Source: Bacteroidota bacterium (GTDB lineage Bacteria > Bacteroidota > Bacteroidia > Bacteroidales > FEN-979). From it: 51,955 bases of DNA. Of this stretch, positions 1 through 21,298 are shown in pieces. Each line of letters starts with the position of its first letter. The stretch's first letter is position 1. The stretch lies in contig JAUZOW010000001.1 in assembly GCA_030706225.1 (NCBI GenBank), positions 1-51,955 on the forward strand, read 5' to 3'. A model generated the notes under the pieces. That model was not told where the DNA came from. It saw only the letters and a list, made by a program, of their open reading frames with translations, and ran no database searches. A program made the translations under genes and the position numbers.

Positions 1-31
1 CAGCCCATGAATGATTAAATGAATACATTCT

Positions 32-1390
32 TTACACGAGTCCCTGAGCCAGCATGGCTTCAGCGACTTTGACAAACCCACCGATATTGGCTCCTTTCAC
101 ATAATTGATGAAGCCGTCGGATTCAGTTCCCCATTTCATGCAATTCTTGTGAATATTGATCATGATGGTGTGGAGCTTGGCATCCACTTCTTCACGCGAC
201 CAGCTCATACGCATAGAGTTCTGTGACATTTCCAACCCGGAGGTTGCGACTCCGCCGGCATTGGCGGCTTTTCCGGGGCCATAGAGAATTTTTTTACTCA
301 GGTAAAGCTCAATGGCTTCCGGAGTGGATGGCATGTTAGCTCCTTCCGAAATGCATAAACAATCATTCTTGATGAGAATTTTTGCATCATCTCCTTCGAT
401 TTCATTCTGGGTCGCACAAGGCAATGCAATATCGCATTTTACTTCCCATGGACGCTTACCGGCGAAATACTTTGCTTCTGCATACTTATCGCAGTATTCC
501 CTGATTCTTCCTCTACGGATATTTTTGAGATTCATTACAAAGGCCAGTTTTTCGGCATCAATGCCTTTCGGGTCATAAATATACCCATCGGAATCGGATA
601 GGGTAACTACTTTGGCTCCAAGCTGGGTAGCTTTTTCAGTTGCATACTGGGCGACATTTCCCGAACCTGAAATAGCAATGATTTTCCCTTTGAAATCAAG
701 ATTTCTGGTCTTGAGCATCTCCTGGGCAAAATAAACTGCGCCATAACCGGTAGCCTCCGGACGAACCAGGCTTCCTCCCCATTCCAGTCCTTTCCCGGTC
801 AGGACACCTGTGAATTCATTACGTAAACGCTTGTACTGGCCAAATAAATAGCCGATTTCACGACCGCCAACCCCGATATCTCCGGCAGGGACATCGGTAT
901 CCGGGCCGATATGACGCGATAATTCAGTCATAAAACTTTGACAGAACCGCATGACTTCATTATCTGACTTCCCTTTCGGATCGAAATCACTTCCTCCTTT
1001 TCCTCCACCCATAGGCAATGTAGTCAGACTGTTCTTGAATACCTGTTCAAAAGCAAGGAACTTCAGAATGCCCAGATTTACGGTAGGATGGAAGCGTAAA
1101 CCACCTTTGTACGGACCGATTGCACTGTTCATCTCTATCCGGTATCCCTTGTTGATCTGGATCTCTCCCTTATCGTCAGTCCATGGAACCCGGAATAGAA
1201 TAACCCGTTCGGGCTCGGCAATCCTTTCCAGAATCTTGGCGGTTTTGTATTTCGGGTTTTCTTCAATGAATGGGATCAGGGATTCAGCGACCTCTTTGAC
1301 TGCCTGGTGAAATTCCTTTTCACCCGGATTTTTTGCAATGATCTTAGCCATAAAATCATTGATCCTTTGTTCGATTGCTTGATTTGCCAT
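32..1390 (-). CDS. gdhA: NADP-specific glutamate dehydrogenase
   Basis: 452-aa ORF with ATG start. Glu/Leu/Phe/Val dehydrogenase hallmarks are present (KGGLRFHP, PMGGGKGGSDFDPKGKS, GDIGVGGREIGYLFGQYKRL, Rossmann GSGNVAQY). Length and end-to-end pattern fit E. coli-type GdhA. Confidence 0.95.
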   Translation of the reverse strand: MANQAIEQRINDFMAKIIAKNPGEKEFHQAVKEVAESLIPFIEENPKYKTAKILERIAEPERVILFRVPWTDDKGEIQINKGYRIEMNSAIGPYKGGLRFHPTVNLGILKFLAFEQVFKNSLTTLPMGGGKGGSDFDPKGKSDNEVMRFCQSFMTELSRHIGPDTDVPAGDIGVGGREIGYLFGQYKRLRNEFTGVLTGKGLEWGGSLVRPEATGYGAVYFAQEMLKTRNLDFKGKIIAISGSGNVAQYATEKATQLGAKVVTLSDSDGYIYDPKGIDAEKLAFVMNLKNIRRGRIREYCDKYAEAKYFAGKRPWEVKCDIALPCATQNEIEGDDAKILIKNDCLCISEGANMPSTPEAIELYLSKKILYGPGKAANAGGVATSGLEMSQNSMRMSWSREEVDAKLHTIMINIHKNCMKWGTESDGFINYVKGANIGGFVKVAEAMLAQGLV

Positions 1391-1430
1391 AGGTGATTGA
1401 TTTAAAGGTTGTTGTTATATTATCCTTAAG

Positions 1431-1438
1431 CAAAAATA
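1431..1438 (-). promoter_or_regulatory. Candidate Bacteroidota -7 box (TAnnTTTG on minus strand) for gdhA
   Basis: Plus-strand CAAAAATA is TATTTTTG on the minus strand, about 40 nt upstream of the gdhA ATG. A motif match only. Confidence 0.3.
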
Positions 1439-1611
1439 TTTAAAAGAAATTCCATTTCAATGAAAAAAACACTTGATTATTTGATTTAATATGCTTATAT
1501 TCAATAAGATACGTAAGTTACTTACGGTCTTTGGTGAATGTTACTTAAAATTTTGTACGTAAACCTCTTATCTTGCTAATAATCATTATTTTCCTCTTTG
1601 TTTTAGTTAAA

Positions 1612-1650
1612 AAATATCTTTATCTTTACAAAGAATCTTCAAAGATATTT
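1612..1650. promoter_or_regulatory. Perfect 10-bp inverted repeat AAATATCTTT-N19-AAAGATATTT (candidate operator or stem-loop)
   Basis: Arms at 1612-1621 and 1641-1650 are exact reverse complements. The repeat ends 24 bp upstream of the ATG at 1674, in the gdhA/cluster divergent intergenic region. Confidence 0.4.
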
Positions 1651-1673
1651 CCTGACTTTAAATTTGGAAAATC

Positions 1674-4600
1674 ATGAACCTCCCTGATGAGCAAACCGGT
1701 TTAAGTCATAACAACAAGCTATCTTCGGACGTCAACAAAATGATGTATGATAGCCGTGAAAGGTTAAAAGAGCTTACGGCAATCAATGAGACTACCATGA
1801 TCATTCGCCAGGAAAAGTCAATCCCTGATACATTGCAGGAGATTTGTCAAATCCTTCCGGCAGCATGGCAGTATCCTGAGCATACGGAAGCAAGGATCCT
1901 GTTTGATGATATGGAATTTATGACGGAAGGTTATCGTGAGACCTCCTGGAAAATGGAGCAACCTTTCGAGACAATTGATAATATTCAGGGGAAGATTGAG
2001 ATTTGTTATTCACAGGAATTCCCGGAAATGGATGAAGGACCTTTCCTGAAAGAAGAAAGGAATCTGATCATTAACCTGGCAAGCCTGATGGAAGGATATC
2101 TGAATGGAATCAAAGGGAAAGAGGGAAGATATGTAACGCGGGAGCGTTTGAAAGAACTATCGGCTATTAATCAGACGACCAGTATCCTCCGGGCGGGCAA
2201 ACCTGTTGAAGAGGCTCTTCACCAGATTTGTCTTGTTCTTCCCAAAGCCTGGCAATATCCTGAATTTGCTGTTTGCCGGATCCGGTATGGTAACATTGAA
2301 GTTCAAAGCTTCGGCTTCCGTGAAACCCAATGGATACAAAAACAAACCTTTGAGACGATTGACAATCAGGAAGGCTTAATTGAAATATTTTACCTGAAAG
2401 CATTTCCTCAATCCGACGAAGGACCCTTCCTGGAAGAAGAACGTCATCTGATCATTAATCTGGCAAACCTGATCGCAGGTTATCTGAACAGCGTGAAAGG
2501 AAAAGCCATCCTCCGGAAAAATATTGAGAAAGCTGCTCCTCCAAAAGAAATTCAGGAAGGAGAATCGGTCAAATACAGTCGTCAGTTATTGCAGACCTTC
2601 CTGAACCGGCAGAACTATAACCGGGATGTTTATCATGATCTGATGCCTTTCAAAGTCAAGGAAATCCTTTTAGTAGCTAATCTTTACGATGCTTACAGTA
2701 TTGAAAAGGAAGGCCGCTTCTCCGAGCATGTTCTGGGAGAATTTTACCAGCTCAGCTTAAGTACAATGCCCCGAATCACAGGGGTTTCAACCATTGAGGA
2801 GGTCTTCGAGCAACTCAACATGAAACATTATGACCTGGTCATCATCATGATGGGAACGGATAAGAAATTCCCGATGGAATTAAGTCATAAGATCAAGGAT
2901 AAATTCCAATATATACCTGTTTTCCTGCTGCTGAACAGTAATATCGACATGGCGCTCATTGAAAATGAACGGGAGCAGCTGATCTGGATCGACCGGATTT
3001 TCGTCTGGAATGGCGATTCCAAGATCTTCTTTGCCATGATCAATTACCTGGAAGATAAAATTAATGTGGAAAACGATACCCATATAGGAATGGTCCGGGT
3101 CATCCTCCTTGTGGAAGATGATCCGGAATATTATTCTCTTTATCTCCCCATGCTTTATAATATTGTATTGGAGCAGACAAAGAATATTATTGAAGATGTT
3201 ACAACCGATGAGCTTTACCGTATTCTCCGGTTGAAAGCCCGTCCCAAAATATTGCTTGCATCTACATTTGAAGAGGCAATGTACATTTTTGGGAAATATA
3301 AAGAATTTATGCTTTGCCTGATCTCTGATGTGAAATTCAAGAAAGACGGCAAATTGAACGATAATGCGGGTTTTATGCTGGTAAAGCAGATGCGGAAAGA
3401 GATTCGGGACCTTCCGATTGTTCTGCAATCTTCCAACGATACCAATCTTGAAAAAGCGTATGAGTTGAAAGCCTCTTTTATCAAGAAAAATTCTGATACT
3501 CTTCTTCAGGATTTCAGAAGCTTCATTACCCATTACCTTGGATTTGGAAATTTTATCTATCGCGATCAGGAAGGCCATCAGATAGCTGTTGCACGTTCAC
3601 TCAAAGAATTCGAGGAATTTCTACGTACCATTCCGGATGAATCCCTTGTTTATCATGGCCGGAAAAATCATTTTTCGCTATGGTTAATGGCCAGAGGAGA
3701 AATTCAGGTGGCTAAAATCCTGAACCCGGCGAAGGTCACTGATTTTAAAGACCCGGCAAGTTTGAGGGAATATCTGATCAATGTTATCGAGCATTTCAGA
3801 AATGAACAGAATAAGGGGAAAGTAATTCCTTTTGAAGAAAAATCCATTACCGACGAAACCAATATCCTCAGCCTCACGGAAGGAGCATTGGGCGGAAAAG
3901 GCAGAGGGCTTGCATTCATCAACACACTGATCTATAATTATGATTTTTCCAGGCATGTTCCTAACATCAATATCCGCACACCCAAAACATCCATCATCGG
4001 GACCGATGAATTTGAGTACTTTCTTGACCGGAATAAGTTGAGGGAACTGGCTGTTTTTGAAACAGACTATGAAAAGATCCGCGAAGCATTTGTTGCAGGC
4101 AAATTGACTGAATCCCTGATCCGGAAGCTGAAGCTGATCATAAAATATATCACCAAGCCTCTTGCTATTCGTTCTTCCGGTTTGTTTGAAGATTCTCTGA
4201 ACCAGCCTTTCGCCGGGATATTTGAAACCTATTTGATTCCTAACAATCATCCCGATCCAAGGATCCGGCTCGAACAACTTATGACAGCCATCAAGCTGGT
4301 ATATGCTTCGGTATATTCCAGAATAGCTAAAGGATATATTGAAGCAGTACATTACAAGATTGAACAGGAGAAGATGGCAGTTGTTATTCAGGAAGTTGTT
4401 GGTAATCAGTATGAAGATGTATATTACCCTCACGTCAGTGGCGTGGCGCAATCGCACAACTACTATCCGTTTGCTCATATGAAACCCGAAGAGGGATTTG
4501 CCGTGATTGCCCTCGGCTTGGGAAGATATGTCGTGGAAGGGGATCGGGCATTCCGGTTTGCACCGTTATATCCTACCCTGGAAATCAATTCTCCAAAGGA

Positions 4601-5549
4601 TCAGTATAAAGGTTCACAGGTATATTATTATGCTGTTGACCTGAAAAAAAAGGATGTAAATCTGTTGGAAGGAGAAGATGCAGGTCTCCGGAAACTGGAT
4701 ATTGAAGATGCCGAGCGCCATTCTACGTTGAAACATTGTGCATCGGTTTATTCCGTCGATATGAACCGGATCATCCCGGGATTGGGACAACCGGGCCCAA
4801 GGGTTGTTAATTTTGCTGATATATTGAAATATAATTACATCCCGCTGGCTAAAACCATTGAAGTGGTTCTGGATGTGGTCAAAGAAGCCCTGGGGGCTCC
4901 GGTTGAGATTGAATTTGCGGTTGACCTGAACAAAGACTCCGAGTTCAAGGCATCTTTTTACCTGTTACAGATCAAGCCACTTATTGGCAGTACCCAGGAA
5001 TATGAAGTGGATATGAATAAGATCGATCCCGAAAAGATCCTTTTATTTTCAGAAAAGGAAATGGGGAATGGATTGATAGATGATATCCGGGATGTTGTTT
5101 TTGTGGATCCGGCATCGTTTGACAAATCCAAAACCATTGAAATGGCTGCCGAGATGGAAAAGATCAATAGTGAGATGATCCGGAAAGGACGGAATTATAT
5201 TCTCATCGGACCGGGACGTTGGGGTACGCGTGATCGCTGGATAGGAGTTCCTGTTGTCTGGCCCCAGATTTCCAATGCAAAAGTAATTGTGGAAACAAGC
5301 CTGGAAGATTTTCCGCTGGATGCGTCTTCCGGTTCACACTTTTTTCATAATGTGACATCTATGAATGTTGGGTATTTTTCTGTACAGCCAGAAATTTCAA
5401 AAAGTTTTATCCGTTACGATGTCTTAAATGCACAGAATACTTTGCGCAAAACAGAGTATTTCCGTATTGTACGCTTTGATAAGCCAGTGATTGTGAGAAT
5501 GGACGGGAAAAAAAGAATTGCTGTCATAAGCTGGCAGAATGGACAATAA
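1674..5549 (+). CDS. Multidomain sensor/ATP-grasp protein: 2x GAF-like (AWQYPE-motif) modules + pseudo-receiver + receiver + PPDK_N-like (PEP synthase/PPDK nucleotide-binding) domain + conserved C-terminal module
   Basis: 1291-aa ORF. Residues 28-150 and 156-278 are tandem copies (RERLKEL..AWQYPE..DEGPFL.EER.LIINLA). Residues ~474-610 fit a CheY-like receiver (LLVEDD .. LISDV .. LQSS .. FIKK). Residues ~735-1100 carry GGKGRGLAF, AIRSSGLFEDS, PFAGIFETY, VVIQEVV, VEIEFAV and LLQIKP, typical of the PEP synthase/PPDK ATP-grasp N-domain. No GGxTSHAAI swivel motif or PEP-utilising TIM-barrel region is visible. Confidence 0.8.
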   Translation: MNLPDEQTGLSHNNKLSSDVNKMMYDSRERLKELTAINETTMIIRQEKSIPDTLQEICQILPAAWQYPEHTEARILFDDMEFMTEGYRETSWKMEQPFETIDNIQGKIEICYSQEFPEMDEGPFLKEERNLIINLASLMEGYLNGIKGKEGRYVTRERLKELSAINQTTSILRAGKPVEEALHQICLVLPKAWQYPEFAVCRIRYGNIEVQSFGFRETQWIQKQTFETIDNQEGLIEIFYLKAFPQSDEGPFLEEERHLIINLANLIAGYLNSVKGKAILRKNIEKAAPPKEIQEGESVKYSRQLLQTFLNRQNYNRDVYHDLMPFKVKEILLVANLYDAYSIEKEGRFSEHVLGEFYQLSLSTMPRITGVSTIEEVFEQLNMKHYDLVIIMMGTDKKFPMELSHKIKDKFQYIPVFLLLNSNIDMALIENEREQLIWIDRIFVWNGDSKIFFAMINYLEDKINVENDTHIGMVRVILLVEDDPEYYSLYLPMLYNIVLEQTKNIIEDVTTDELYRILRLKARPKILLASTFEEAMYIFGKYKEFMLCLISDVKFKKDGKLNDNAGFMLVKQMRKEIRDLPIVLQSSNDTNLEKAYELKASFIKKNSDTLLQDFRSFITHYLGFGNFIYRDQEGHQIAVARSLKEFEEFLRTIPDESLVYHGRKNHFSLWLMARGEIQVAKILNPAKVTDFKDPASLREYLINVIEHFRNEQNKGKVIPFEEKSITDETNILSLTEGALGGKGRGLAFINTLIYNYDFSRHVPNINIRTPKTSIIGTDEFEYFLDRNKLRELAVFETDYEKIREAFVAGKLTESLIRKLKLIIKYITKPLAIRSSGLFEDSLNQPFAGIFETYLIPNNHPDPRIRLEQLMTAIKLVYASVYSRIAKGYIEAVHYKIEQEKMAVVIQEVVGNQYEDVYYPHVSGVAQSHNYYPFAHMKPEEGFAVIALGLGRYVVEGDRAFRFAPLYPTLEINSPKDQYKGSQVYYYAVDLKKKDVNLLEGEDAGLRKLDIEDAERHSTLKHCASVYSVDMNRIIPGLGQPGPRVVNFADILKYNYIPLAKTIEVVLDVVKEALGAPVEIEFAVDLNKDSEFKASFYLLQIKPLIGSTQEYEVDMNKIDPEKILLFSEKEMGNGLIDDIRDVVFVDPASFDKSKTIEMAAEMEKINSEMIRKGRNYILIGPGRWGTRDRWIGVPVVWPQISNAKVIVETSLEDFPLDASSGSHFFHNVTSMNVGYFSVQPEISKSFIRYDVLNAQNTLRKTEYFRIVRFDKPVIVRMDGKKRIAVISWQNGQ
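1755..2507 (+). repeat. Intragenic tandem duplication (2 x ~128 codons) encoding the AWQYPE-type sensory module
   Basis: Copy 1 is ~1755-2123 and copy 2 is ~2139-2507. The protein copies are roughly 55-60% identical by eye and collinear over their whole length. Confidence 0.85.
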
Positions 5550-5607
5550 AAGAATGCACATAAATGAATTTTACAATAGCTTTTAATAACTATTATAAAA
5601 ACATCCT

Positions 5608-6126
5608 ATGCGTGTTTCAAGAATTTATCCATCCATCAACCGGAAATCCAATATCCAGGTTGATATTTCATTACTGGATCCCCTTCTTCAGAAATACAAG
5701 GGTATTAAAGGAAATCTGATCCCTTTGCTTCAGGGGACTCAGGAAATATATGGGTTCATTCCCCGTTCTGCTTTTGAGCGGATTTCGGATGAAACAGGGC
5801 TTCCATTGAGCAAAATGTACGGGGTAGCTACCTTTTATGCCCAATTCCGGCTTCATCCTGTCGGCAAACATATTATCAAAGTTTGTCATGGCACTGCCTG
5901 TCATGTTCAGAATGCCAACTTAATTTCTGAAGCCATTGAGGAAGAGCTGTGCGTAAAAGACGGTGAGACCACAGAAGATCATTTTTATACGCTGGAATCG
6001 GTTGCCTGCCTGGGATGTTGTTCCCTTGCACCGGTCATGATGGTAGGGGATCATGCCTACGGGAAACTAACCGGTACAAAAGCTACCCGGATACTGAAAG
6101 AAATTCGCGATAATGAGAATAAATGA
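5608..6126 (+). CDS. NuoE/HydC-like thioredoxin-fold [2Fe-2S] subunit (24-kDa family)
   Basis: 172 aa. The Cys pattern VCHGTACHV ... ACLGCCSLAPV and the LIPLLQ..Q...G.I motif are typical of the NuoE/HndA/HydC family. It lies 58 bp after the upstream ORF on the same strand. Confidence 0.9.
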   Translation: MRVSRIYPSINRKSNIQVDISLLDPLLQKYKGIKGNLIPLLQGTQEIYGFIPRSAFERISDETGLPLSKMYGVATFYAQFRLHPVGKHIIKVCHGTACHVQNANLISEAIEEELCVKDGETTEDHFYTLESVACLGCCSLAPVMMVGDHAYGKLTGTKATRILKEIRDNENK

Positions 6127-6143
6127 TCACAAATCATTGAAGT

Positions 6144-7922
6144 ATGTCTGAAACAACGGTGACCGTCGGACTGGGAAGTTGCGGCATTGCTGCAGGAGCC
6201 GGCAAAACATACGAAAAGATTCAGTCGATCCGGGAAACGGAAAAACTGGATTTTATTCTCCGGAAAACATCTTGTATTGGCATGTGTTACCGGGAACCTC
6301 TGGTTGAGATCCGGGATGAAACGGGAAGTTATATTTATGGCGATGTTTCTGAAGAACGTGTTGCTGAATTAATAGAAAAGCATGTCAGAAATCATGAACC
6401 TGTTCGTGAATACATTATTCAAACCGATGTGTTTAATGCTCCGGAAAATGATTTTCTGAAGTCACAGGTAAGAATTGTTCTCCGGAATTGTGGATTAATG
6501 GATCCTGAATCCATTGAAGAATATGAATCCCGGCAAGGATACCAGGCAATCCGGAAAATCATCAGCGAAAATATTTTGAGAGAAGATGTCATTAAAACAA
6601 TATTGGATTCAGGATTAAGAGGACGTGGAGGCGCCGGTTTTTCGACGGGATTGAAATGGAAATACGCAAATGCCAACAAATCGTCTGAAAAATATGTGAT
6701 CTGTAATGCCGATGAAGGCGATCCGGGTGCTTTCATGGACCGGTCAGTTCTGGAAGGTGATCCTCATTCGGTTTTGGAAGGGATGATCATCGCGGCTTAT
6801 TCCATTGAAGCGACAGGTGGCGTCATTTATTGTCGTGCCGAATATCCCCTGGCGATTAAGAGATTGGATATAGCGATCCGGCAGGCCCGCGAAAGAGGAT
6901 ATCTTGGAACAAATGTTTTCGGGAAGGAAGGATTTAATTTCGATATTACAATCAAGGAAGGAGCAGGAGCTTTTGTTTGCGGAGAAGAAACCGCTCTGAT
7001 CGCTTCGGTGGAAGGAGAAAGAGGTATGCCTCGCAAACGCCCGCCATTTCCTGCTCAGTCGGGACTCTGGAAAAAGCCTACAAATATCAACAATGTGGAG
7101 ACTTATGCCAATGTTCCCTGGATCATCCTGAACGGTGCGGAAGCATATGCGAAATATGGAACGGAAAAAAGCAAAGGAACCAAGGTTTTTGCCCTTGCAG
7201 GGAAAGTAAAGCATTCGGGTTTGGTTGAAGTCCCAATGGGAGTGACTATCCGCGATGTCATTTTCAAGCTGGGAGGTGGAATCAAGATGGATAAACGTTT
7301 CAAGGCTGTCCAGCTGGGAGGCCCTTCCGGCGGATGTATTCCGGAAAGCCATTCCGATACCATCGTGGATTATGATTCATTGAATGCCACAGGAGCCATT
7401 ATGGGCTCCGGAGGAATGGTCGTAATGGATGAAACGACATGCATGGTGGATGTCGCCAAATTCTTCCTGGATTTCACCCGGAAAGAATCCTGCGGCAAGT
7501 GCACATTCTGCCGGATGGGTACAAAACGTATGCTGGAGATCCTTGAACGAATAACAGATGGGAAAGGAGAGGAGGGCGATATTGAAAAACTGGAAGAACT
7601 GGCTTTTCAAATCCGGGATAATTCTCTTTGCGCTCTCGGACAAACTGCTCCGAATCCCGTTTTAACTACAATCCGTTATTTCCGGGATGAATATGAAGCT
7701 CATATTTTACATAAAAAATGTCCGGCAAAAGTTTGCAGACCATTACTGACGTATACTGTAGATCCTGCAAAATGTACAGGATGTATGGTTTGCCTGAAAA
7801 ATTGCCCTGTTCATGCGATCACAGGAGAACGGAAAAAGATACATTTTATCGATCCGGATATTTGTACAAAATGCGGAATTTGCTTCTCAAAATGTAAATT
7901 TGACTCTATTATTGTGTCCTGA
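6144..7922 (+). CDS. NuoF/HydB-like NAD(P)H-binding FMN iron-sulfur flavoprotein with C-terminal 2x[4Fe-4S] ferredoxin domain
   Basis: 592 aa. It has an N-terminal thioredoxin-like Cys pair region (GSCGIAAG .. CIGMCYREP) and the GRGGAGFSTGLKWK FMN/NADH motif. It also has the ESCGKCTFCRMG cluster motif and a C-terminal CTGCMVCLKNCP plus CTKCGICFSKCK. Confidence 0.9.
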   Translation: MSETTVTVGLGSCGIAAGAGKTYEKIQSIRETEKLDFILRKTSCIGMCYREPLVEIRDETGSYIYGDVSEERVAELIEKHVRNHEPVREYIIQTDVFNAPENDFLKSQVRIVLRNCGLMDPESIEEYESRQGYQAIRKIISENILREDVIKTILDSGLRGRGGAGFSTGLKWKYANANKSSEKYVICNADEGDPGAFMDRSVLEGDPHSVLEGMIIAAYSIEATGGVIYCRAEYPLAIKRLDIAIRQARERGYLGTNVFGKEGFNFDITIKEGAGAFVCGEETALIASVEGERGMPRKRPPFPAQSGLWKKPTNINNVETYANVPWIILNGAEAYAKYGTEKSKGTKVFALAGKVKHSGLVEVPMGVTIRDVIFKLGGGIKMDKRFKAVQLGGPSGGCIPESHSDTIVDYDSLNATGAIMGSGGMVVMDETTCMVDVAKFFLDFTRKESCGKCTFCRMGTKRMLEILERITDGKGEEGDIEKLEELAFQIRDNSLCALGQTAPNPVLTTIRYFRDEYEAHILHKKCPAKVCRPLLTYTVDPAKCTGCMVCLKNCPVHAITGERKKIHFIDPDICTKCGICFSKCKFDSIIVS

Positions 7923-7954
7923 TTAACCGATCATCAAGTTGAAAAATTTTTAAA

Positions 7955-10900
7955 ATGACTGATAATTACCTGAATATTATACTTAACGGGAATAATGTCA
8001 AAGGTATTCCGGGAGAGACCATCCTTGAGCTTTCCCGTCGTCATGGCATTGAGTTACCTACTTTGTGCAATGACGATCGGCTGGAGCCATTTTCTTCTTG
8101 TTTTTTATGCGTGGTTGAAGTGGAAAATCTGAAAGGGCATCAGCCCGCCTGCTCCACGATCATTACCGAAGGAATGAAGATTACGACCGACAGCGAAAGT
8201 ATACGGAAATCAAGGAAGATGGCCCTCGAGCTCCTTCTCAGCAACCATTATGCAGATTGCCTGGGACCTTGTACGCAGACCTGCCCGGCAGGTGTAGATG
8301 TCCAGGGATATATTTCATTGATTGAAAAGGGATTATACAATGATGCGGTCGCACTGATCAAGGAAACCAATCCTTTGCCTGCTGTCTGCGGCAGGGTATG
8401 TGTCCGGCCTTGTGAATTGGAATGCCGCCGGAATTTGCTGGATGATGATTTTCCCGTCGGAATCGATTACCTGAAACGATTTGTTGCTGATCGTGACCTG
8501 GAATCTCCGACAAAGTTTGTTCCTTCCGTGAAACCTTCAACCGGTAAAAAAGTTGCTGTCATCGGCGCAGGTCCCGGAGGACTTTCGGCTGCTTACTTTC
8601 TTCAGCTTGAAGGCCACAATGCCGATATCTATGAAGCTGCACCCAAATCGGGCGGATGGCTTCGCTATGGCATCCCGGAATACCGGCTGCCTAATGATAT
8701 TCTGGATAAAGAAGTAAAGAATATTACCGACCTCGGAGTCCGGATCTTTTATAACCGGAAACTGGGGGATAACCTGAGCTACCGCGAAATCAGGCAGGAA
8801 TATGATGCCACTATCCTGACTATTGGATCACAGAAGGGAACCGGAGTGGGCTGTGAAGGAGAGGATGCAGTGAATGTTTTTTCCGGGATCGACTTTCTCC
8901 GGAACATGGAAATGACAGGACAACGCCACGACTTTACCGGGAAAACCGTTGCGGTAATCGGTGGGGGAAATACCGCTATGGATTGCTGCCGGACAGCTGC
9001 CCGATGCAAAGCTGCAAAGGTGTATATAATATACCGGCGGACTGAAAAAGAGATGCCGGCGAATCCTATGGAGATCCATGAATCAAAGCAGGAAGGTGTG
9101 GAATATTTATTCCTTACCCTTCCTAAGAAAATTAATAAGAATGAAAAAGGGGAAGTATCCGGAATAACCTGTATCCGTATGATGCTTGGTGAACCGGATG
9201 CTTCCGGCAGACGTAGCCCGGTTCCGATCGAAGGATCTGATTTCGATATTCCGGTGGATTATATCCTGGCAGCCATCGGACAGAAAACCGATGTGAACTT
9301 TATTGACGATATCAATACTTATGCAGAAGAAGGGAAGCTGCAGATCAACCGGAAAGGTAATATTGAAGCAGATGGACAGACCCTGCAGACTGGCATTCCA
9401 TCGGTATTTGCAGCAGGGGATGGCGTAACCGGACCGGCAACAATCGTTGAAGCTATTGCCCAGGCAAGAATTGCTGCATTCAGTGCGAACCTTTTCCTGG
9501 CCGGTTTACCTGTTAAACCGTTGAATAAACCTTTTATCAGCCGGAAAGAAAATTTCCGCAAGCAGACAAAAGAAGATTATGCAGGCCGTTTTAAAAGCCA
9601 GCCCAGAGAAGAAATGCCTGTTATTCCTGCAGATTTGCGTAATAATTTCAGAGAAGTGGAATTGGGTTACACCGACAATGAAATTGCCAACCACGAAACG
9701 CTCCGCTGTCTGGAATGTGGCTGCTCTGCATTTTTCCATTGCGATCTGCAGAAATATGCTACGGAATACGGGGCCTTCCAGCGGAAGTTTGAAGGTGAGT
9801 TCAAAGAATTCCGAGTCGATTTCAGGCATCCTTTCATTGAAATAGATAACAATAAATGCATCCTTTGTGGCCGTTGTATCCGGATCTGCAGGGAAGTCGT
9901 GGGCGCTGATGCTCTGGGCTTCGTAAACCGTGGATTTGAAACGGTGGTGGTTCCCAGTATGGGCGATTCACTTCAGGATACTACCTGTGAATCCTGTGGA
10001 TTATGCATCTCCACCTGCCCGACAGGAGCCCTTACCGAAAATGTGGCTTTTAAGCCGGGACCTGTCATTACTGACGAGGCGAATGCCTTGTGTGATTATT
10101 GTTCCGTGGGGTGCTCACTGACACTTTTACATAAGAAGGGATTTGTTATGGGAGTGAAAGGCGCCAAAGGATTTGTCAACAGGGATGGAAATATTTGTCA
10201 GTACGCGAAATTCGGTTATCGTCACTTTAATGACCGAAGCCGGATTCTAAAGCCTCTCTTGAAAAAAGGTAATGAGCTTTTCGAAATTTCCTTTGAGGCA
10301 GCTTTTGACCTCATCCGGGATAAAATCCGGGAAGTCTCTCCTGATGAAAATGCTTTTTTTGCCGGAGCCAGGCTTTCTAACGAAGAGATGTATCTTGTTC
10401 AGAAGCTGGCAAGAGCCGGTGTGGGAACGAATAATACAGGCAGTTTCCATTATCTCGGCAGAAATGACGGATATCCGGAATTCTGGAGGAATAATGTACC
10501 CTTTGAAGAGCTTGGCGATGTAAAAAAAGTTTATTATATCGGCATTGAGATCAACCGCGATAATCCGGTTGCAGGCTATATGGTTCAACTTAACCGCTTC
10601 AGAAAAAATATTCCTGTTGTAATGGTTACAACCCACCGGGTAAATTCCATGTCGCACAAAACGGATGAAACAATCCTTATCAATTCCTATTATTATTTCA
10701 TCAAAGCAGTAATTCATTATCTGGTGTCCAACGGTCTTGAAAATAAATTATACCTTCATGACCTTGCACAGGGATGGGAAAAATACCGTGAAGAGCTTTT
10801 AAAGGAAAATTATGATGATCTTGTAAAAAGATCCGGAGTTTCAAACCCTTCTATAATCGGAAAATTCGCTGCAGAATATAATCTACAGCAGAATGCCGTG

Positions 10901-11680
10901 ATCTTTTTCTCCGAGAAAGAGATCTCCTCGGCGACGGGAAAAGAGTTGTTCAATCTGGCTATGATTACGGGTAAACATGGTAAGACGGGAAGTGGGATCA
11001 TCTGTTTGAAAGAAAAAAATAATTCCCAGGGGCTTTTTGATATGGGGGTTTTGCCGGAATTTGGAGTGGGATATCAGCCCATTTCTGATCCTGCTTTCCG
11101 GAATGCCCTGAAAGAGATTTGGAATCTTAAAGAGATCCCCGAAAAAACTAATGATCTTCTTGAACTTTTAAAACAGGGCAGTATCCGGAACCTTTTCATT
11201 TTTGGAGAAGATCCTGCCGGATGTTCGGTAAATGAAGAGGTGGCAGGCTGGTTGTCAAAGCCTCAATTTCTGGTCGTTCAGGATAATTTCATAACTCCGA
11301 CCGCTCAAATGGCCGACCTGATTCTACCGGGTTCTTTCCCTGAGGAATCTGGCGGAACATTTACCAATGCCCTGAGAGTGATCCAGGTAACCAATGCCCA
11401 TCTTCCACGGAGAATTGAATATTCCGGAACAGAGCAACTGGCGGCTATTCTTAATAAATTAGGGAAAGGAGGGCCAGTCCATGCAAATGAAATTTTCATG
11501 GAGATCATTTCCCTCCTACCCAAAAGCAGAGAACCTGAAAAACACTGTAATTGCGCTGAAGGTATTGTTCTGAGAGTGACTCACAGGGATGATCAGTACC
11601 GGATTTTTTCGTCAGGTTGTGATTTTATCCAGAAAAAATTTGAAGAAGACTTTGAACTTGCATTAAAAGTCAACCGGTAA
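7955..11680 (+). CDS. Fusion protein: plant-type 2Fe-2S ferredoxin domain + GltD-like (glutamate synthase small-subunit family) FAD/NAD(P)H oxidoreductase + NuoG/FdhA-like FeS domains + degenerate molybdopterin-oxidoreductase-like domain
   Basis: 1241 aa. Residues 5-80 have the 2Fe-2S Cys pattern. Residues ~100-515 carry CPAGVDVQGYI..NPLPAVCGRVCVRPCE.EC, VAVIGAGPGGLSAA and VAVIGGGNTAMDC (GltD-like). Residues ~585-700 carry CILCGRCIRIC and CESCGLCISTCP. Residues ~713-750 carry CDYCSVGCSL..NICQYAKFG (Mo/W-bisPGD-type 4Fe-4S). The region equivalent to the FDH active-site Cys/Sec-His reads GTNNTGSFHYLG, with no Cys. No C-terminal molybdopterin-dinucleotide-binding barrel is evident. Confidence 0.8.
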   Translation: MTDNYLNIILNGNNVKGIPGETILELSRRHGIELPTLCNDDRLEPFSSCFLCVVEVENLKGHQPACSTIITEGMKITTDSESIRKSRKMALELLLSNHYADCLGPCTQTCPAGVDVQGYISLIEKGLYNDAVALIKETNPLPAVCGRVCVRPCELECRRNLLDDDFPVGIDYLKRFVADRDLESPTKFVPSVKPSTGKKVAVIGAGPGGLSAAYFLQLEGHNADIYEAAPKSGGWLRYGIPEYRLPNDILDKEVKNITDLGVRIFYNRKLGDNLSYREIRQEYDATILTIGSQKGTGVGCEGEDAVNVFSGIDFLRNMEMTGQRHDFTGKTVAVIGGGNTAMDCCRTAARCKAAKVYIIYRRTEKEMPANPMEIHESKQEGVEYLFLTLPKKINKNEKGEVSGITCIRMMLGEPDASGRRSPVPIEGSDFDIPVDYILAAIGQKTDVNFIDDINTYAEEGKLQINRKGNIEADGQTLQTGIPSVFAAGDGVTGPATIVEAIAQARIAAFSANLFLAGLPVKPLNKPFISRKENFRKQTKEDYAGRFKSQPREEMPVIPADLRNNFREVELGYTDNEIANHETLRCLECGCSAFFHCDLQKYATEYGAFQRKFEGEFKEFRVDFRHPFIEIDNNKCILCGRCIRICREVVGADALGFVNRGFETVVVPSMGDSLQDTTCESCGLCISTCPTGALTENVAFKPGPVITDEANALCDYCSVGCSLTLLHKKGFVMGVKGAKGFVNRDGNICQYAKFGYRHFNDRSRILKPLLKKGNELFEISFEAAFDLIRDKIREVSPDENAFFAGARLSNEEMYLVQKLARAGVGTNNTGSFHYLGRNDGYPEFWRNNVPFEELGDVKKVYYIGIEINRDNPVAGYMVQLNRFRKNIPVVMVTTHRVNSMSHKTDETILINSYYYFIKAVIHYLVSNGLENKLYLHDLAQGWEKYREELLKENYDDLVKRSGVSNPSIIGKFAAEYNLQQNAVIFFSEKEISSATGKELFNLAMITGKHGKTGSGIICLKEKNNSQGLFDMGVLPEFGVGYQPISDPAFRNALKEIWNLKEIPEKTNDLLELLKQGSIRNLFIFGEDPAGCSVNEEVAGWLSKPQFLVVQDNFITPTAQMADLILPGSFPEESGGTFTNALRVIQVTNAHLPRRIEYSGTEQLAAILNKLGKGGPVHANEIFMEIISLLPKSREPEKHCNCAEGIVLRVTHRDDQYRIFSSGCDFIQKKFEEDFELALKVNR

Positions 11681-11701
11681 ATGTAACTTTACTGAAGTAA
11701 A

Positions 11702-14680
11702 ATGTTAAGCCGGAAAAATATACTGGATCCCAAGAAGTATTACTTTATTGACACTTCTTTCAATCTGCTGATGAAGCAGCGCATTTACCAGGTGCTGCTG
11801 ATTTCCAGTACATATGATTCATTTATGCTGGAAGAAGACGGAAGAATCGATGAAGTGATCTTTTTGGAATATGTTTCATTGAATCTGCGTTATCCTCCGC
11901 AATTCATTAAGGTGACTTCAGAAAAGGAGGCATTTGAAGTGCTGGAGGATAAGCGAATCGAACTGGTCATCTCAATGCTGAATATCGAAAATACGGACAC
12001 TTTCGATATTGCTTTGAAGATTAAGAAGAAATTTCCCCGTATCCCCATTGTCGTTCTGACTCCTTTTTCCAGGGAAGTAAACATGAAGCTCCGGGAACGG
12101 AATCTGTCTGCCATCGATTATGTTTTCAGCTGGCTTGGAAATGCCGATATTCTGATGGCCATTGTCAAGCTTATTGAAGACCGGATGAATATCGACCAGG
12201 ACATAGGTCAGGGAGTACAGGCGGTCATGCTGGTGGAGGACAGCATCCGGTTTTATTCAAGCTATCTTCCGAATATCTATAAGATCATTTACAGGCAGTC
12301 AAAAGGTTTTATCACTGAAGGGCTGAATGAGCATCAGAAGATGCTCCGGATGCGGGGGCGTCCAAAAATTCTTTTGGCGACAAGCTATGAAGAAGCCGTC
12401 AATATGTTCGGGAAATACAAAAACAACCTGCTTGGGATTATTTCGGATATCAGCTTTACGAAAAACGGGGTTACTGATAAAACAGCAGGTGTTCAATTTG
12501 TCAGGACTGTAAAGGAAGAAGATAATTTCATGCCTATCCTTTTACAATCGGCCGATTCGGAGAATGAAGCGATTGCCAAAGAGTTGGGGGTGGGATTCAT
12601 CAATAAGACATCCAAAACACTATCGATCGAATTACGGAATTATATCAATGAATACTTCTTTTTCGGGGATTTTGTCTTCATAGATCCAAAGACGGGCCGG
12701 GAAATTACGCGGGCTGCAGACCTGAAAACTCTTCAGGAAAAAATATTTGAAATTCCGGATGACTCCCTTTTGTATCATATGCAACGGAATCATTTTTCGA
12801 AATGGCTGAATGCCAGAGCTTTATTCCCTATTGCCGAAATGTTCAGAGAAGTATCGGTGTCAGAATTTGCAGATGTGGATGAAGCGAAGCGATACATATT
12901 CGATTCCATTACAGCCTTCCGGATTAACAAAGCTCGGGGAGTCATTGCTGATTTCGACCGGGAGAAGTATGACGAATACCTTCAGTTTGCCCGTATTGGT
13001 CAGGGATCCATCGGGGGAAAAGCACGGGGACTGGCTTTTCTTGATTCTCTCGTCAAGAGAAACCGGCTGGGTGAAAAGTTTCAGGATATTATCCTTTCAA
13101 TTCCCCGTACTGTCGTTATTGGAACCGACATCTTCGATGAGTTCATGGAAGACAACAAACTTTATGAAATTGCACTTTCCGACCGAAGTGATAAAGATAT
13201 CCTGGCTCATTTTATAAAAGCCCGTCTTCCCTTTACCATTCACGAGGATCTTTATGCTTTTGTCAACTGCATCAATTCACCGATTGCCATTCGTTCTTCG
13301 AGCCTGCTGGAGGATTCCCATTACCAGCCGTTTGCCGGGATTTATTCCACTTACATGATCCCCAATGTAAAATTCAATGAAAGGATCATGATTGAAAAAT
13401 TAAGCGAAGCTATTAAAAGTGTGTATGCTTCTGCTTTTTTCAGAGACAGTAAATCTTATATGGCTGCTACCCTCAACGTGATTGATGAAGAAAAAATGGG
13501 AATTGTGCTTCAGGAAGTAACGGGGAGACAATATGGCCCACGCTATTATCCTGCAATTTCAGGTGTGGCAAGGTCTATTAATTTTTACCCGATATCTCCG
13601 GAAAAACCGGAAGACGGGATTGCTAATATAGCTTTCGGGTTAGGTAAATATATCGTGGATGGTGGAGTCGGAATAAGATTTTCACCCCGTTATCCTAAAA
13701 AGATCCTTCAGCTTTCAACACCTGATCTTGCTTTAAGCGAAACACAAAAAACCTTTTATGCCCTGGACCTGGATGCTGATCATTTTGTGCCGAATATCGA
13801 TGAAACCGTCAATCTTCTGAAATTAAAGATTAAAGATGGAGAAGAAGATTCTGCTTTGCGTCTGATAGCCTCCACCTTTGATTACGACAGCAATCAGCTT
13901 CGCGATGGTACCCTGATGCCGGGTAAACGGATCGTCACTTTCTCCCAGATATTGAACCATGGCACATTCCCGTTAGCAGAGATTTTGCAAATGGTTTTGG
14001 AGATAGGGCAGAAGGAGATGGGTAAACCTGTTGAGATAGAGTTTGCGGTGAACCTGGATCTTCCACCCGGTGACCCCCGTGTATTTTCCCTGTTGCAGAT
14101 CCGCCCGATTGCCGGGAGAAACGATACAGTTGATCTCAATGAGGATGAAATCGTTCCGGATGAGGCCATTGTTCTGTCAAAATCAGCTCTTGGAAACGGA
14201 ATCATCAAAGATGTTCATGATTTTGTTTATATCCGTCCGGATTCCTTTTCCGCGGCAAAAAGTCCGGAAATAGCGCGGAGACTTGAAAATCTCAATGACA
14301 GGTTGAAGAATGAAAAGCGGGGTTATGTGCTTGTCGGGCCGGGAAGATGGGGTTCCAGTGATCCATGGCTGGGTATCCCGGTGAAATGGCCGCAGATCTC
14401 AGGCGCTCGTGTCATTGTCGAATCCGGATTGTCTACTTACCGGATCGATCCGAGCCAGGGTACTCATTTCTTCCAGAATCTTACCTCATTCCACGTCGGT
14501 TACTTTACCGTTAATCCTTACATTAACGAAGGAAAATATGATCTTGATTTTCTGAATTCCGTACCTGCTGAATTCGAAGATGAATTCATCCGGCAGATAC
14601 ATTTTGAAAAGCCCGTCCAAATTATCATTGACGGGAAAAAAGGAATTGGCCTGATCTATAAGCCGGGTGTTATCAGATAG
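11702..14680 (+). CDS. Paralog of the 1674-5549 product lacking the two N-terminal sensory modules: pseudo-receiver + receiver + PPDK_N-like ATP-grasp + conserved C-terminal module
   Basis: 992 aa, collinear with residues ~300-1291 of the first protein. Shared blocks: LLISSTYDSF/LLVANLYDAY, MLVEDS/LLVEDD, IISDISF/LISDVKF, GGKARGLAF/GGKGRGLAF, IRSSSLLEDS/IRSSGLFEDS, VEIEFAV, LLQIRP/LLQIKP, GPGRWG, WPQIS, GTHFFQN/GSHFFHN. Confidence 0.8.
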   Translation: MLSRKNILDPKKYYFIDTSFNLLMKQRIYQVLLISSTYDSFMLEEDGRIDEVIFLEYVSLNLRYPPQFIKVTSEKEAFEVLEDKRIELVISMLNIENTDTFDIALKIKKKFPRIPIVVLTPFSREVNMKLRERNLSAIDYVFSWLGNADILMAIVKLIEDRMNIDQDIGQGVQAVMLVEDSIRFYSSYLPNIYKIIYRQSKGFITEGLNEHQKMLRMRGRPKILLATSYEEAVNMFGKYKNNLLGIISDISFTKNGVTDKTAGVQFVRTVKEEDNFMPILLQSADSENEAIAKELGVGFINKTSKTLSIELRNYINEYFFFGDFVFIDPKTGREITRAADLKTLQEKIFEIPDDSLLYHMQRNHFSKWLNARALFPIAEMFREVSVSEFADVDEAKRYIFDSITAFRINKARGVIADFDREKYDEYLQFARIGQGSIGGKARGLAFLDSLVKRNRLGEKFQDIILSIPRTVVIGTDIFDEFMEDNKLYEIALSDRSDKDILAHFIKARLPFTIHEDLYAFVNCINSPIAIRSSSLLEDSHYQPFAGIYSTYMIPNVKFNERIMIEKLSEAIKSVYASAFFRDSKSYMAATLNVIDEEKMGIVLQEVTGRQYGPRYYPAISGVARSINFYPISPEKPEDGIANIAFGLGKYIVDGGVGIRFSPRYPKKILQLSTPDLALSETQKTFYALDLDADHFVPNIDETVNLLKLKIKDGEEDSALRLIASTFDYDSNQLRDGTLMPGKRIVTFSQILNHGTFPLAEILQMVLEIGQKEMGKPVEIEFAVNLDLPPGDPRVFSLLQIRPIAGRNDTVDLNEDEIVPDEAIVLSKSALGNGIIKDVHDFVYIRPDSFSAAKSPEIARRLENLNDRLKNEKRGYVLVGPGRWGSSDPWLGIPVKWPQISGARVIVESGLSTYRIDPSQGTHFFQNLTSFHVGYFTVNPYINEGKYDLDFLNSVPAEFEDEFIRQIHFEKPVQIIIDGKKGIGLIYKPGVIR

Positions 14681-15395
14681 AGTAGTCGCGGTTATCCTGG
14701 ATGACCATCTGCATTGAATTCAGTTCAAGCGCTACAAGGTTTCCGAAGCCATCTTTTCCACGGATATATGTTCCGTTATCCAGGTCGATATAAGGATAAT
14801 TCGGGTTTGTTACAGCGAAATGAATCAGTTCCAGGTGAACAGGTACATGCCCGTGAATAATCCTGCGATTACCGATTTTTTCAGGCTTGATGTTATAATC
14901 TCTTACCCAGAGCATGGAACTCTGGTCGGAAAAAGGATCATCCAGTGAAAAATTAAGCCCTGCATGAACAAGTACATAATCATCCAGGCTTGCAAAGCAG
15001 GGCAGCCCTTTCATCCATTCAATATATTCTGCGGGAATATCCTGAATATTCTTCACTCCGAAGCTTTCAAGCGTTTTCCTGCCACCGATATTCATCCATT
15101 CATTTAACTGAGGATTCATAAAGCGGGGAAGCAACCGGGACATGGATGAATGTCGCAAATTGAAAATTTCTGAAATAAAATCTTCGTGATTCCCTTTCAG
15201 GGCGACAATTTTGTACTGATCTTTCTGAAGATTCCGGATATAATCAATAACACCGCGTGAACCGGGCCCGCGGTCAATATAATCGCCGAGAAAGAATAGT
15301 TCATCCTCGTGTGCCGGGCATATCTTTTCTTCCATCAGGGCTTTCAGAGTGTTTATACACCCGTGAATGTCCGGTATGACCCAGCGTTTATGCAT
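14673..15395 (-). CDS. PPP-family metallophosphoesterase (Ser/Thr protein phosphatase / ApaH-like)
   Basis: 240 aa. It carries IPDIHGC, GDYIDRGP and GNHED metallophosphatase motifs plus a downstream GH motif (IIHGHVP). It starts 9 bp downstream of gpmA on the same strand. Confidence 0.8.
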   Translation of the reverse strand: MHKRWVIPDIHGCINTLKALMEEKICPAHEDELFFLGDYIDRGPGSRGVIDYIRNLQKDQYKIVALKGNHEDFISEIFNLRHSSMSRLLPRFMNPQLNEWMNIGGRKTLESFGVKNIQDIPAEYIEWMKGLPCFASLDDYVLVHAGLNFSLDDPFSDQSSMLWVRDYNIKPEKIGNRRIIHGHVPVHLELIHFAVTNPNYPYIDLDNGTYIRGKDGFGNLVALELNSMQMVIQDNRDYSI

Positions 15396-15404
15396 AAAAG
15401 ATGG

Positions 15405-16151: not shown

Positions 16152-16198
16152 AATGTTTCAGATTGATGTGTATTGCGCAAAAATACTGTTTTTTTTAA

Positions 16199-16206
16199 TA
16201 CCTTTG
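16199..16206 (+). promoter_or_regulatory. Candidate Bacteroidota -7 box TACCTTTG
   Basis: Matches TAnnTTTG 22 nt upstream of the ATG at 16229. The identical box and spacing occur before the ORF at 39185. Confidence 0.35.
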
Positions 16207-16228
16207 CCCGCAACCTCAACACTGCAAC

Positions 16229-21170: not shown

Positions 21171-21252
21171 TGCTCAACAACGACATAAAATACAGAGGTG
21201 AACTCGGGAAATCAATGAAATTTTACAAATACAGCAGCGTTGAACTTCCATT

Positions 21253-21295
21253 TCTTGGCAATTTGCGTTAAAAAAAGAATGACATCATCCGGAAA
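21253..21295 (+). repeat. Right copy of ~43-bp imperfect direct repeat flanking the rhuM-like gene
   Basis: See the left copy. This copy abuts the radC stop codon (21299-21301, minus strand). Confidence 0.85.
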
Positions 21296-21298
21296 TAA

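Follow-up and report, generated by a model that had tools for sequence, protein, structure and literature searches.

We have identified, in the complete 51,955-bp contig of a Bacteroidota metagenome-assembled genome (the whole stretch that was analysed, hereafter the window), two large paralogous genes, g1 and g5, which bracket three redox genes (g2, g3 and g4) and belong to a protein family whose constant partner is glutamate dehydrogenase (GDH), met in many gene arrangements and across deep divergence. Both proteins carry a pair of receivers, an ATP-grasp domain and a histidine-bearing C-terminal domain, and they probably regulate ammonium assimilation, a role not described for them before. 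With moderate confidence we read the region as a GDH-centred locus, in which g1 and g5 would be orphan response regulators that act on the GDH/NADPH node of ammonium assimilation through an ATP-dependent phosphotransfer. A first-pass annotation of the same DNA had placed the centre elsewhere, taking the pair as dedicated to the redox module that lies between its members; an exclusive link of that kind, between the pair and the transhydrogenase (Nfn) to which we assign the module, was not supported.

Gene neighbourhoods of the family

The gene divergent from g1 encodes an NADP-specific GDH, its product scoring 778 bits against the equivalog model NCBIfam NF006929 (cut-off 536), and this neighbour is the one that recurs. 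Neighbourhoods were scanned around the best-scoring 80 species-level relatives of g5 and the best-scoring 80 metagenomic relatives of g1; open reading frames (ORFs) were called by a simple heuristic and clustered by BLASTP, and homologs of the window genes were located by tblastn. Many loci are incomplete, the g1 counts use the loci with enough sequence, and kinship among genomes is ignored in all counts. GDH was found at most 2.5 kb from a g5-type gene in 26 of the 80 species-level genomes, which belong to Bacteroidia and Flavobacteriia, and a divergent GDH gene precedes the g1-type gene in 44 of 60 loci. Adjacency by chance should be well under 1%, given one or two GDH genes among the thousands of a genome.

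The arrangement of the two partners varies widely. Lentimicrobium has the two paralogs side by side, a divergent GDH gene and no Nfn, while in Flavobacteriia (Lutibacter, Polaribacter and others) a single family gene lies between two GDH genes on one strand (L051, L053, L058 and L062), with the order GDH-PP-GDH-PP in L045; in Gillisia the GDH gene comes after the family gene. At L053, the one locus tested, the upstream GDH is of the NF006929 type and the downstream one of the NF010633 type, and two GDH subtypes around one gene suggest an anabolic and catabolic isoenzyme pair around one regulator. Elsewhere g5 and GDH share one operon that diverges from a g1 type of 1560 aa (L127, L131-L134, L158), or the order runs GDH, g1, g5, GDH, NfnC, NfnB, NfnA (L149, L152). 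Moreover, GDH is directly adjacent in 5 of 7 distant representatives with 34-42% identity: one of these loci (L087) holds GDH, the family gene and genes of the NfnSL type together, another (L168) has the 2-oxoglutarate dehydrogenase E1, E2 and E3 genes (15007-18928) near the family gene and GDH, and a third distant locus (L171) shows a divergent pair arrangement.

The distant locus L086 (GCA_028278265.1) encodes at 1823-7823 two paralogs of g5 length (1004 and 997 aa), the genes of which overlap by 8 bp; this pair is preceded by RidA and Metallophos genes and followed by the gene of a protein with PAS and receiver domains, and no GDH gene was found inside the 12.8-kb locus.

The second partner, Nfn, is confined to certain lineages and has been taken up at least twice, from enzyme families that are unrelated to each other. 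Downstream of the g1-type gene (n = 66) stand NfnC of an NfnABC enzyme in 17 loci, an NfnSL-type enzyme (PyrK-like and GltD-like genes by Pfam) in 9, a g5-type paralog in 15 and other genes in 25, that is, an Nfn of either of two unrelated types in 26 of 66 or about 40%. The full bracket g1-NfnC-NfnB-NfnA-g5 was found in 10 loci, among which the window is the only one without a rubrerythrin gene (about 151 aa) between nfnA and g5 (present in L001, L020, L088, L090, L093 and L097-L100), having there the 21-bp gap at 11681-11701. In L005 the paralog pair brackets an NfnSL-type enzyme that is unrelated to NfnABC. Among the 80 species-level relatives of g5, the g1-type paralog is directly upstream in 12 and NfnABC adjoins the g5-type gene in one (L020). 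The claimed dedication of the pair to the redox module consequently fell, since adjacent pairs occur without Nfn and Nfn is next to the g5-type gene so rarely, and a link to NuoE/NuoF-like genes does not extend to the family as a whole. What stood of it is a link in some lineages, namely the sublineage that carries g1, as seen in the 10 brackets, in L005 and in some 40% of the g1 relatives; the family-wide link is the one to GDH.

A third partner is a KorAB-like 2-oxoacid:ferredoxin oxidoreductase (OAFO_sf alpha and PorB_KorB beta subunits), encoded directly upstream on the same strand in 11-13 of the 80 genomes. KorAB-like loci are L013, L016-L019, L021, L024-L027, L030, L039, L063, L138, L139, L157 and L166, where the enzyme upstream of the family gene or pair consists of a fused gamma/alpha subunit and a beta subunit. 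A further small gene goes with NfnSL-type enzymes: a 310-aa protein without a Pfam match (L115, 13563-14495) always lies between the g1-type gene and the PyrK-like/GltD-like pair, and was seen also in L103, L107, L117, L119, L122, L123 and L162. The GltD-like subunit at these loci is 594-604 aa long, of which about 150 residues form an extension at the N-terminus.

Domain architecture of g1 and g5

Residues 323-1285 of g1 align to residues 23-985 of g5 with 39% identity over 968 residues (E = 0). The first-pass annotation had described the two products as collinear paralogs, each with a pseudo-receiver, a receiver with acidic pocket and acceptor Asp, a PPDK_N-type ATP-grasp domain and a shared C-terminal module, and both the alignment and the motifs and Pfam matches agree with it. 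Structural statements below refer to a g5 AlphaFold model built from 42 diverse homologs (mean pLDDT 87.7, pTM 0.80), and conservation to 42 diverse family members in g5 numbering and to 10 g1 relatives in g1 numbering.

The first receiver has Ser or Ala at the acidic-pair positions and Thr, Ile, Ala or Ser at the acceptor position of the family alignment, and is called a pseudo-receiver because neither the acidic pocket nor the acceptor Asp is there. In the second receiver the five g1 residues listed in Table 1 are invariant among the 10 g1 relatives, and the g5 positions are kept in most of the 42 members (E179 in 40, D180 in 34, D249 in 36, Ser or Thr at 283 in 41 and K302 in 42). Pfam Response_reg matches are weak, the first receiver of g5 reaching 35 bits and the others staying below the cut-off; Foldseek gave the tandem receivers of PleD as the best match of the N-terminal 300 residues of g5, and matched other receivers too. 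Judged by the features of the second receiver, g1 and g5 are predicted response regulators. Between receivers and ATP-grasp domain runs a linker for which g1 gives a match to Pfam DUF5752 below the cut-off (E 2e-4).

In the ATP-grasp domain all 42 members share K440, R531, S532, S533, E537 and D538, while E778 and E780 are each kept in at least 90% of them. The best Foldseek match of the g5 domain is rifampin phosphotransferase (5hv1, E 2e-12), and HpeI (9goj) was matched as well. Both paralogs keep the ATP-grasp motifs, and from these motifs neither looks like a dead copy.

A conserved His-bearing domain occupies in g1 and g5 the position of the phospho-carrier of dikinases. G881, R882, E907 and G920 of this C-terminal domain are invariant in the g5 alignment, G884 and H922 are kept in 41 of 42 members, and the g5 domain modelled alone reaches a pLDDT of 94. 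The domain, of about 180 residues, gave no Pfam match in 28 members even at E values up to 10, no PDB fold match better than E 7e-3 with TM <0.3 in Foldseek and no PDB sequence relative in a profile search. The first-pass annotation had also stated that the swivel domain of PEP-utilizing enzymes and the PEP/pyruvate barrel are missing; they had not been overlooked, as neither was found in g1 or g5 by Pfam, NCBIfam, profile search of PDB sequences or Foldseek, and the NCBIfam PEP synthase models match only through their first ~200 positions with scores far below the cut-offs. We have considered the C-terminal module as a diverged swivel phospho-His domain, its strand, Gly-Ser/Thr-His and helix resembling the GG.TSH motif, and have not adopted this assignment: the profile search of PDB sequences returned only chance longin hits, and Pfam and Foldseek gave the negative results stated above.

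The N-terminal extension of g1 consists of two real tandem repeats of about 130 residues each (consensus ERLKEL..IN.TT...LP.AWQYPE...ARI...DEGPFL.EER), and other lineages have one module copy or longer N-terminal extensions. The earlier description of these two extra modules as sensor-like remains plausible only: they gave no Pfam match, a homolog search with the module profile returned short fragments only and no annotated architecture, and the sole outside match is to the first helix of a GAF domain (4g3v) at a marginal E of 0.026. With that helix as the only match, an assignment as GAF or PAS domains was not adopted, and the modules are possibly GAF-like ligand sensors. No DNA-binding domain was detected in g1 or g5. 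As the first-pass annotation had noted for the window, no histidine kinase was found among the other large ORFs, nor among the recurrent neighbour families, in screens that were not aimed at kinases.

The middle genes g2 to g4

For the three genes between the paralogs the first-pass annotation had proposed a GltD- and NuoG-like flavin and iron-sulfur oxidoreductase. The domains that it named are present, and PPDK_N, Complex1_51K, 2Fe-2S_thioredx, Fer4_20, Pyr_redox_2 and Molybdopterin were all matched in the profile-HMM check; the enzyme is not an unknown complex, for the best PDB matches point to NfnABC/Stn. Pfam finds 2Fe-2S_thioredx in g2, Complex1_51K, NADH_4Fe-4S and Fer4 in g3, and Fer2_4, Fer4_20, Pyr_redox_2, Fer4_Nqo3, Molybdop_Fe4S4 and Molybdopterin in g4. 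The best PDB matches are 9bov_C, 8oh5_A and 9n5u_C for g2, over the full length 8oh5_B (862 bits), 9bov_B and 9n5u_B for g3, and for g4 Caldicellulosiruptor NfnA (9bov_A, 771 bits, residues 13-1032), followed by Sporomusa StnC (8oh5_C, 730 bits) and archaeal NfnA (9n5u_A). Because solved complexes of the NfnABC/Stn family are the best PDB matches of all three subunits, each matched over its full length, we assign g2 to g4, from their sequences, to the NfnABC/Stn-type (Bfu) flavin-based electron-bifurcating transhydrogenases.

According to PMC11829005, a C-terminal di-cluster domain (clusters B3 and B4) separates bifurcating BfuB from non-bifurcating NuoF homologs, and NfnABC/Stn enzymes of the Bfu family reduce NAD+ and ferredoxin at the expense of NADPH, or work in the opposite direction. 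This additional 2x[4Fe-4S] domain is present at the C-terminus of g3 (Fer4, Fer4_7 and Fer4_21 at residues 537-590), and its alignment to 8oh5_B and 9bov_B extends to residue 590-591. In g4 a GltD module (Fer4_20 and Pyr_redox_2) is joined to a Molybdopterin-like domain, and the whole protein is collinear with NfnA of C. saccharolyticus (Csac). Taken alone, the Nfn part is an ordinary new member of a structurally solved family.

Distribution and naming of the family

The family is large: at least 8000 clusters at 90% identity were matched in a word-indexed search, and an exhaustive search of representatives at 50% identity returned 5198 at E <=1e-3 and 1264 at E <=1e-30, most of them about 1000 residues long and aligned end to end. 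Family loci were confirmed in at least 597 species-level genomes, and carriers include the cultured species Bacteroides bouchesdurhonensis, B. timonensis and B. muris, as well as Lutibacter, Gillisia limnaea, Prevotella, Paludibacter, Tannerella and Muribaculaceae; the gene at L044 is 89% identical to a Phocaeicola faecalis protein present on 899 contigs. Public names are 'PEP/pyruvate-binding domain-containing protein', 'phosphoenolpyruvate synthase' and 'CheY-like'. The first-pass annotation knew of no characterised function for the combination of receiver and PPDK_N domains, and no describing paper for the architecture or its link with GDH was found in the literature searched; we regard the architecture as that of a response regulator with a putative new enzymatic output. 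A supposed B. thetaiotaomicron ortholog between gdhA and gdhB (BT1971/BT1972) was dropped, BT1971 being a catalase.

Proposed function and alternative explanations

We read g1 and g5 as signalling rather than pathway enzymes because they combine a PleD-like receiver pair, optional sensor-like repeats and a catalytic-looking ATP-grasp domain. By established pathway knowledge the KorAB-like enzyme would make 2-oxoglutarate from succinyl-CoA and reduced ferredoxin, Nfn would make NADPH from NADH and reduced ferredoxin, and GDH would turn 2-oxoglutarate, ammonium and NADPH into glutamate; the three partners fit one node, since each would feed or use substrates of the assimilatory GDH. In an anaerobe, Nfn and GDH have been described as supplier and consumer of NADPH (PMC9888227). 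Starting from the anatomy of the proteins, the identities of Nfn and GDH and the linkage counts, all of which were observed, we infer a mechanism of activation, a role for His922, a g1/g5 heterodimer and a target. An unlinked histidine kinase would phosphorylate the receiver Asp, and a ligand may also bind the N-terminal modules of g1. Phosphorylation could then shift the dimer state in a PleD-like manner, in a homodimer or in a g1/g5 heterodimer, and this change would turn on an ATP-dependent phosphotransfer by the ATP-grasp domain, with the conserved C-terminal His as the probable phospho-carrier standing in for the missing swivel domain. The phosphoryl group would be passed to a target in the GDH/NADPH node, most likely GDH and possibly Nfn as a second one, and the outcome would be an NADPH-consuming ammonium assimilation that is matched to nitrogen and redox status.

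More tentatively, and rather doubtfully as yet, the family could be a class of signal-gated protein-modifying enzymes that covalently switch GDH, and in some lineages Nfn, on and off. GDH is the main route of ammonium assimilation in many Bacteroidota, abundant gut genera included, and we know of no account of a post-translational control of GDH activity and NADPH supply in this phylum. In the 1980s the GDH of Bacteroides fragilis was reportedly inactivated in vivo, reversibly and by no stated mechanism, after an ammonium upshift, an unconfirmed lead that we do not count as evidence. If the covalent switch is true, the family, which stands beside gdh genes in gut Bacteroides and Phocaeicola, would be an obvious candidate for that inactivation. 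It would also give response regulators a new enzymatic output and dikinase-type ATP-grasp domains a new partner domain. Linkage with GDH, with two kinds of Nfn and with the oxidoreductase offers a concrete hypothesis that is testable in cultured, genetically tractable species.

Several points weigh against control of the GDH node as we propose it. GDH is missing from the 2.5 kb around the gene in about two thirds of the 80 species-level relatives of g5 and is not adjacent in two of the seven distant loci (L086 and L170), and the neighbourhood counts are approximate. Asp249 is substituted in 6 of the 42 members, and a catalytic role of the C-terminal domain, which is not recognisable as a swivel domain, is a guess from conservation. 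Furthermore, adjacency fits co-regulation, a shared metabolite or a direct protein target equally, and the literature searched for the family, its architecture and the regulation of Bacteroides GDH held nothing relevant. It has therefore to be asked what else the pair could do. That it serves Nfn, sensing energy charge or a metabolite and modifying or assembling the redox subunits while GDH is a merely co-regulated neighbour, would suit the bracket kept in 10 loci, the non-orthologous NfnSL-type enzyme bracketed in L005, the Nfn systems after 26 of 66 g1 relatives and the NfnSL-type genes adjoining a distant member in L087. We nevertheless think it unlikely, because NfnABC stands beside the g5 relative in only one of the 80 species-level genomes, Lentimicrobium and more than 15 other loci have the two paralogs side by side with no Nfn, and the Flavobacteriia gene comes with GDH and without Nfn; an excerpt of PMC11829005, moreover, has characterised NfnABC/Stn enzymes purified as three-subunit complexes and mentions no such partner. 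The pair might also be a self-contained switch, in which the ATP-grasp domain and the C-terminal His phosphorylate the receiver Asp of the same protein or of its paralog, with an output through protein contact, through allostery on GDH/Nfn or indirectly through the transcription of these enzymes, and no covalent target. The co-conservation of receiver residues and C-terminal His speaks for such a switch, as does the divergent gdhA-g1 arrangement with conserved spacer repeats, which suggests tight co-regulation, and so does the lack of a histidine kinase among the large window ORFs and recurrent neighbours, in screens that were not kinase-specific. Orphan response regulators are common, so a missing neighbour kinase proves little; no DNA-binding domain was detected; and we know of no precedent for phosphotransfer from PPDK_N to a receiver Asp, which counts against the switch and makes it improbable in our opinion.

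Another view would make the proteins dikinase-like enzymes of metabolism, with receivers that merely tune activity and with a substrate from the 2-oxoglutarate/glutamate/NADP node, some small molecule such as a keto-acid, amino acid or nucleotide cofactor. The nearest characterised ATP-grasp relatives (PEP synthase, rifampin phosphotransferase, PigC/RedH and HpeI) phosphorylate small molecules, the neighbours GDH, Nfn, 2-oxoacid:ferredoxin oxidoreductase and, in L168, 2-oxoglutarate dehydrogenase all belong to one metabolic node, and some members are publicly annotated as 'phosphoenolpyruvate synthase'. To this we give little credence: a known dikinase substrate-binding domain is not present, two receivers and the sensor-like repeats of g1 are typical of signalling proteins, and two active-looking paralogs per operon would be unusual for a metabolic step. 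Finally, the gene order could be inherited Bacteroidota synteny without any functional relation, the outer genes acting on something unrelated. One phylum supplies most of the loci, unrelated neighbours stand beside many g5 relatives, and recurrent FabD, FolE and PTPS neighbours do look like plain clade synteny. Mere inheritance is nonetheless very improbable in the face of at least five GDH arrangements (divergent upstream, same-strand downstream, same-strand upstream, on both sides, and in one operon with g5 on the strand opposite g1), of a GDH linkage still seen at 34-38% protein identity, a distance at which the remaining neighbours have been exchanged, and of the independent recruitment of two unrelated Nfn types.

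Organisation of the locus and other genes of the window

The five ORFs on the + strand and the gaps between them (58, 17, 32 and 21 bp) that the first-pass annotation had given were reproduced by ORF calls on the window, and a single operon is plausible as it had held, the gaps being short and none of the four junctions containing a terminator-like hairpin. The features are collected in Table 1.

Table 1. Features of the g1-g5 region and its flanking genes (window coordinates; aa, amino acids; nt, nucleotides)
Feature	Position	Strand	Remarks
gdhA, NADP-specific glutamate dehydrogenase (GDH)	32-1390	-	Pfam ELFV_dehydrog_N and ELFV_dehydrog; divergent from g1
gdhA-g1 shared divergent control region	1391-1673	.	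283 bp
g1, long paralog, 1291 aa	1674-5549	+	two repeat modules, pseudo-receiver, receiver, linker, ATP-grasp, C-terminal domain
g1 N-terminal modules, residues ~25-300	1746-2573	+	two tandem copies of ~130 residues each (~25-150, 152-300)
g1 pseudo-receiver, residues ~323-470	2640-3083	+	aligns to g5 residues 23-170
g1 receiver, residues ~474-620	3093-3533	+	E481, D482, acceptor D552 (nt 3327-3329), S586, K605
g1 linker	3534-3884	+	beta-hairpin and helical bundle, motif YH...NHFS.WL; secondary structure read from the g5 model
g1 ATP-grasp (PPDK_N), residues 738-1120	3885-5033	+	Pfam E 3.5e-38; motifs GGKGRG, RSS..ED, EIEF
g1 C-terminal domain	5007-5546	+	GPGRWGT, E1207, SGSH1222FFHN (His codon nt 5337-5339)
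nfnC (g2), NuoE-like [2Fe-2S] subunit, 172 aa	5608-6126	+	Pfam and PDB matches
nfnB (g3), NuoF-like FMN/NADH subunit, 592 aa	6144-7922	+	Pfam and PDB matches
nfnA (g4), large subunit, 1241 aa	7955-11680	+	N-terminal [2Fe-2S], GltD-type FAD/NADPH module, NuoG/Fdh-like FeS domain, probably pterin-less; Pfam and PDB matches
g5, short paralog, 992 aa	11702-14680	+	ortholog type is single copy across Bacteroidia and Flavobacteriia
g5 pseudo-receiver, residues ~23-170	11768-12211	+	g5 model
g5 receiver, residues ~174-318	12221-12655	+	E179, D180, acceptor D249 (nt 12446-12448), S283, K302
g5 linker	12656-13006	+	weak DUF5752 match; W368 invariant, H359 nearly invariant
g5 ATP-grasp (PPDK_N), residues 436-814	13007-14143	+	Pfam E 4.4e-39
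g5 C-terminal domain, residues 815-992	14144-14677	+	His codon H922 nt 14465-14467
metallophosphoesterase gene	14673-15395	-	Pfam; convergent to g5, ORF ends overlap 8 bp
histidine-phosphatase-superfamily gene	15405-16151	-	Pfam; convergent to g5

The spacer between gdhA and g1 holds a perfect palindrome, CGTAAGTTACTTACG, at 1512-1526, together with further TTAC(G/T)TAA-like repeats, and TTACG/CGTAA repeats recur across an alignment of 17 orthologous gdhA-g1 spacers. A different, CRP/FNR-like palindrome, TGTGAAAnTTTTCACA, adjoins the GDH start in L092, L094, L097, L101, L103, L110, L162 and L005, and is not in the window's own gdhA-g1 spacer; a TAnnTTTG-like Bacteroidota -7 element was seen upstream of g1 in relatives. 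A sigma-70 promoter scan did not rise above the shuffled expectation, with a model that is ill-suited to Bacteroidota promoters, and no Rfam family, riboswitch or other RNA element was matched in window 1-16500.

The metallophosphoesterase and histidine-phosphatase genes that converge on g5 are syntenic in close relatives only (L001, L020, L054, L090, L093 and L099), at varying distance, and with their synteny so confined they were not adopted as encoding a reversing phosphatase. L086 has a Metallophos gene close to its distant pair too, but one without detectable orthology to the metallophosphoesterase of the window. Further along, RhuM-family, RadC-like JAB and CHAT-domain genes are clustered at 20184-24119, which may be a small mobile or defence-related islet. 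The remainder (24158-51741) holds housekeeping genes (LptD/LptF-G, TGT, urocanase, prolyl oligopeptidase and two sigma-70-family factors) and a cytochrome c peroxidase with MbnP; Asparaginase, GatD_N and GatB_N domains (GatDE-like), unusual for bacteria, are also encoded there.

Comparison with known systems

The subunits and the domain set of g2 to g4 are those of the NfnABC/StnABC enzymes of C. saccharolyticus (9bov), Sporomusa ovata (8oh5) and an archaeon (9n5u), that is, a NuoE-like 2Fe-2S subunit, a NuoF-like FMN subunit with the C-terminal di-cluster domain, and a large subunit with GltD-type FAD/NADPH and Fdh-like parts. The locus differs from these in its gene order C-B-A, in the two receiver/ATP-grasp genes that flank it and in the divergent gdhA; g4 exceeds Csac NfnA in length by about 60 residues, and the enzyme is here known from its genes alone.

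With PEP synthase, PPDK and rifampin phosphotransferase, g1 and g5 have in common the ATP-grasp fold and the GGKG, RSS..ED and E.E motifs. Unlike these dikinases they lack a swivel phospho-His domain as well as a PEP/pyruvate TIM barrel or rifampin-binding domain, and their ATP-grasp domain lies in the C-terminal half, behind two receivers and ahead of a His-bearing domain of its own. The public name 'phosphoenolpyruvate synthase' is wrong because g1 and g5 fail two defining features of the dikinases. PleD offers the parallel for the N-terminal half, as it also has a tandem receiver pair, one intact and one degenerate, ahead of an enzymatic domain. In g1 and g5, however, the pseudo-receiver comes first and the output is an ATP-grasp and a novel domain rather than GGDEF; a control by dimerisation would be carried over from PleD only by inference.

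In function, the proposed pair would find its closest analogy in PpsR beside ppsA, AceK in aceBAK and GlnE/GlnD for glutamine synthetase, which are ATP-using covalent switches of enzymes at central nitrogen or carbon nodes, some of them encoded beside their target. The analogy is functional only, with no relation in sequence or fold between these switches and g1 or g5.

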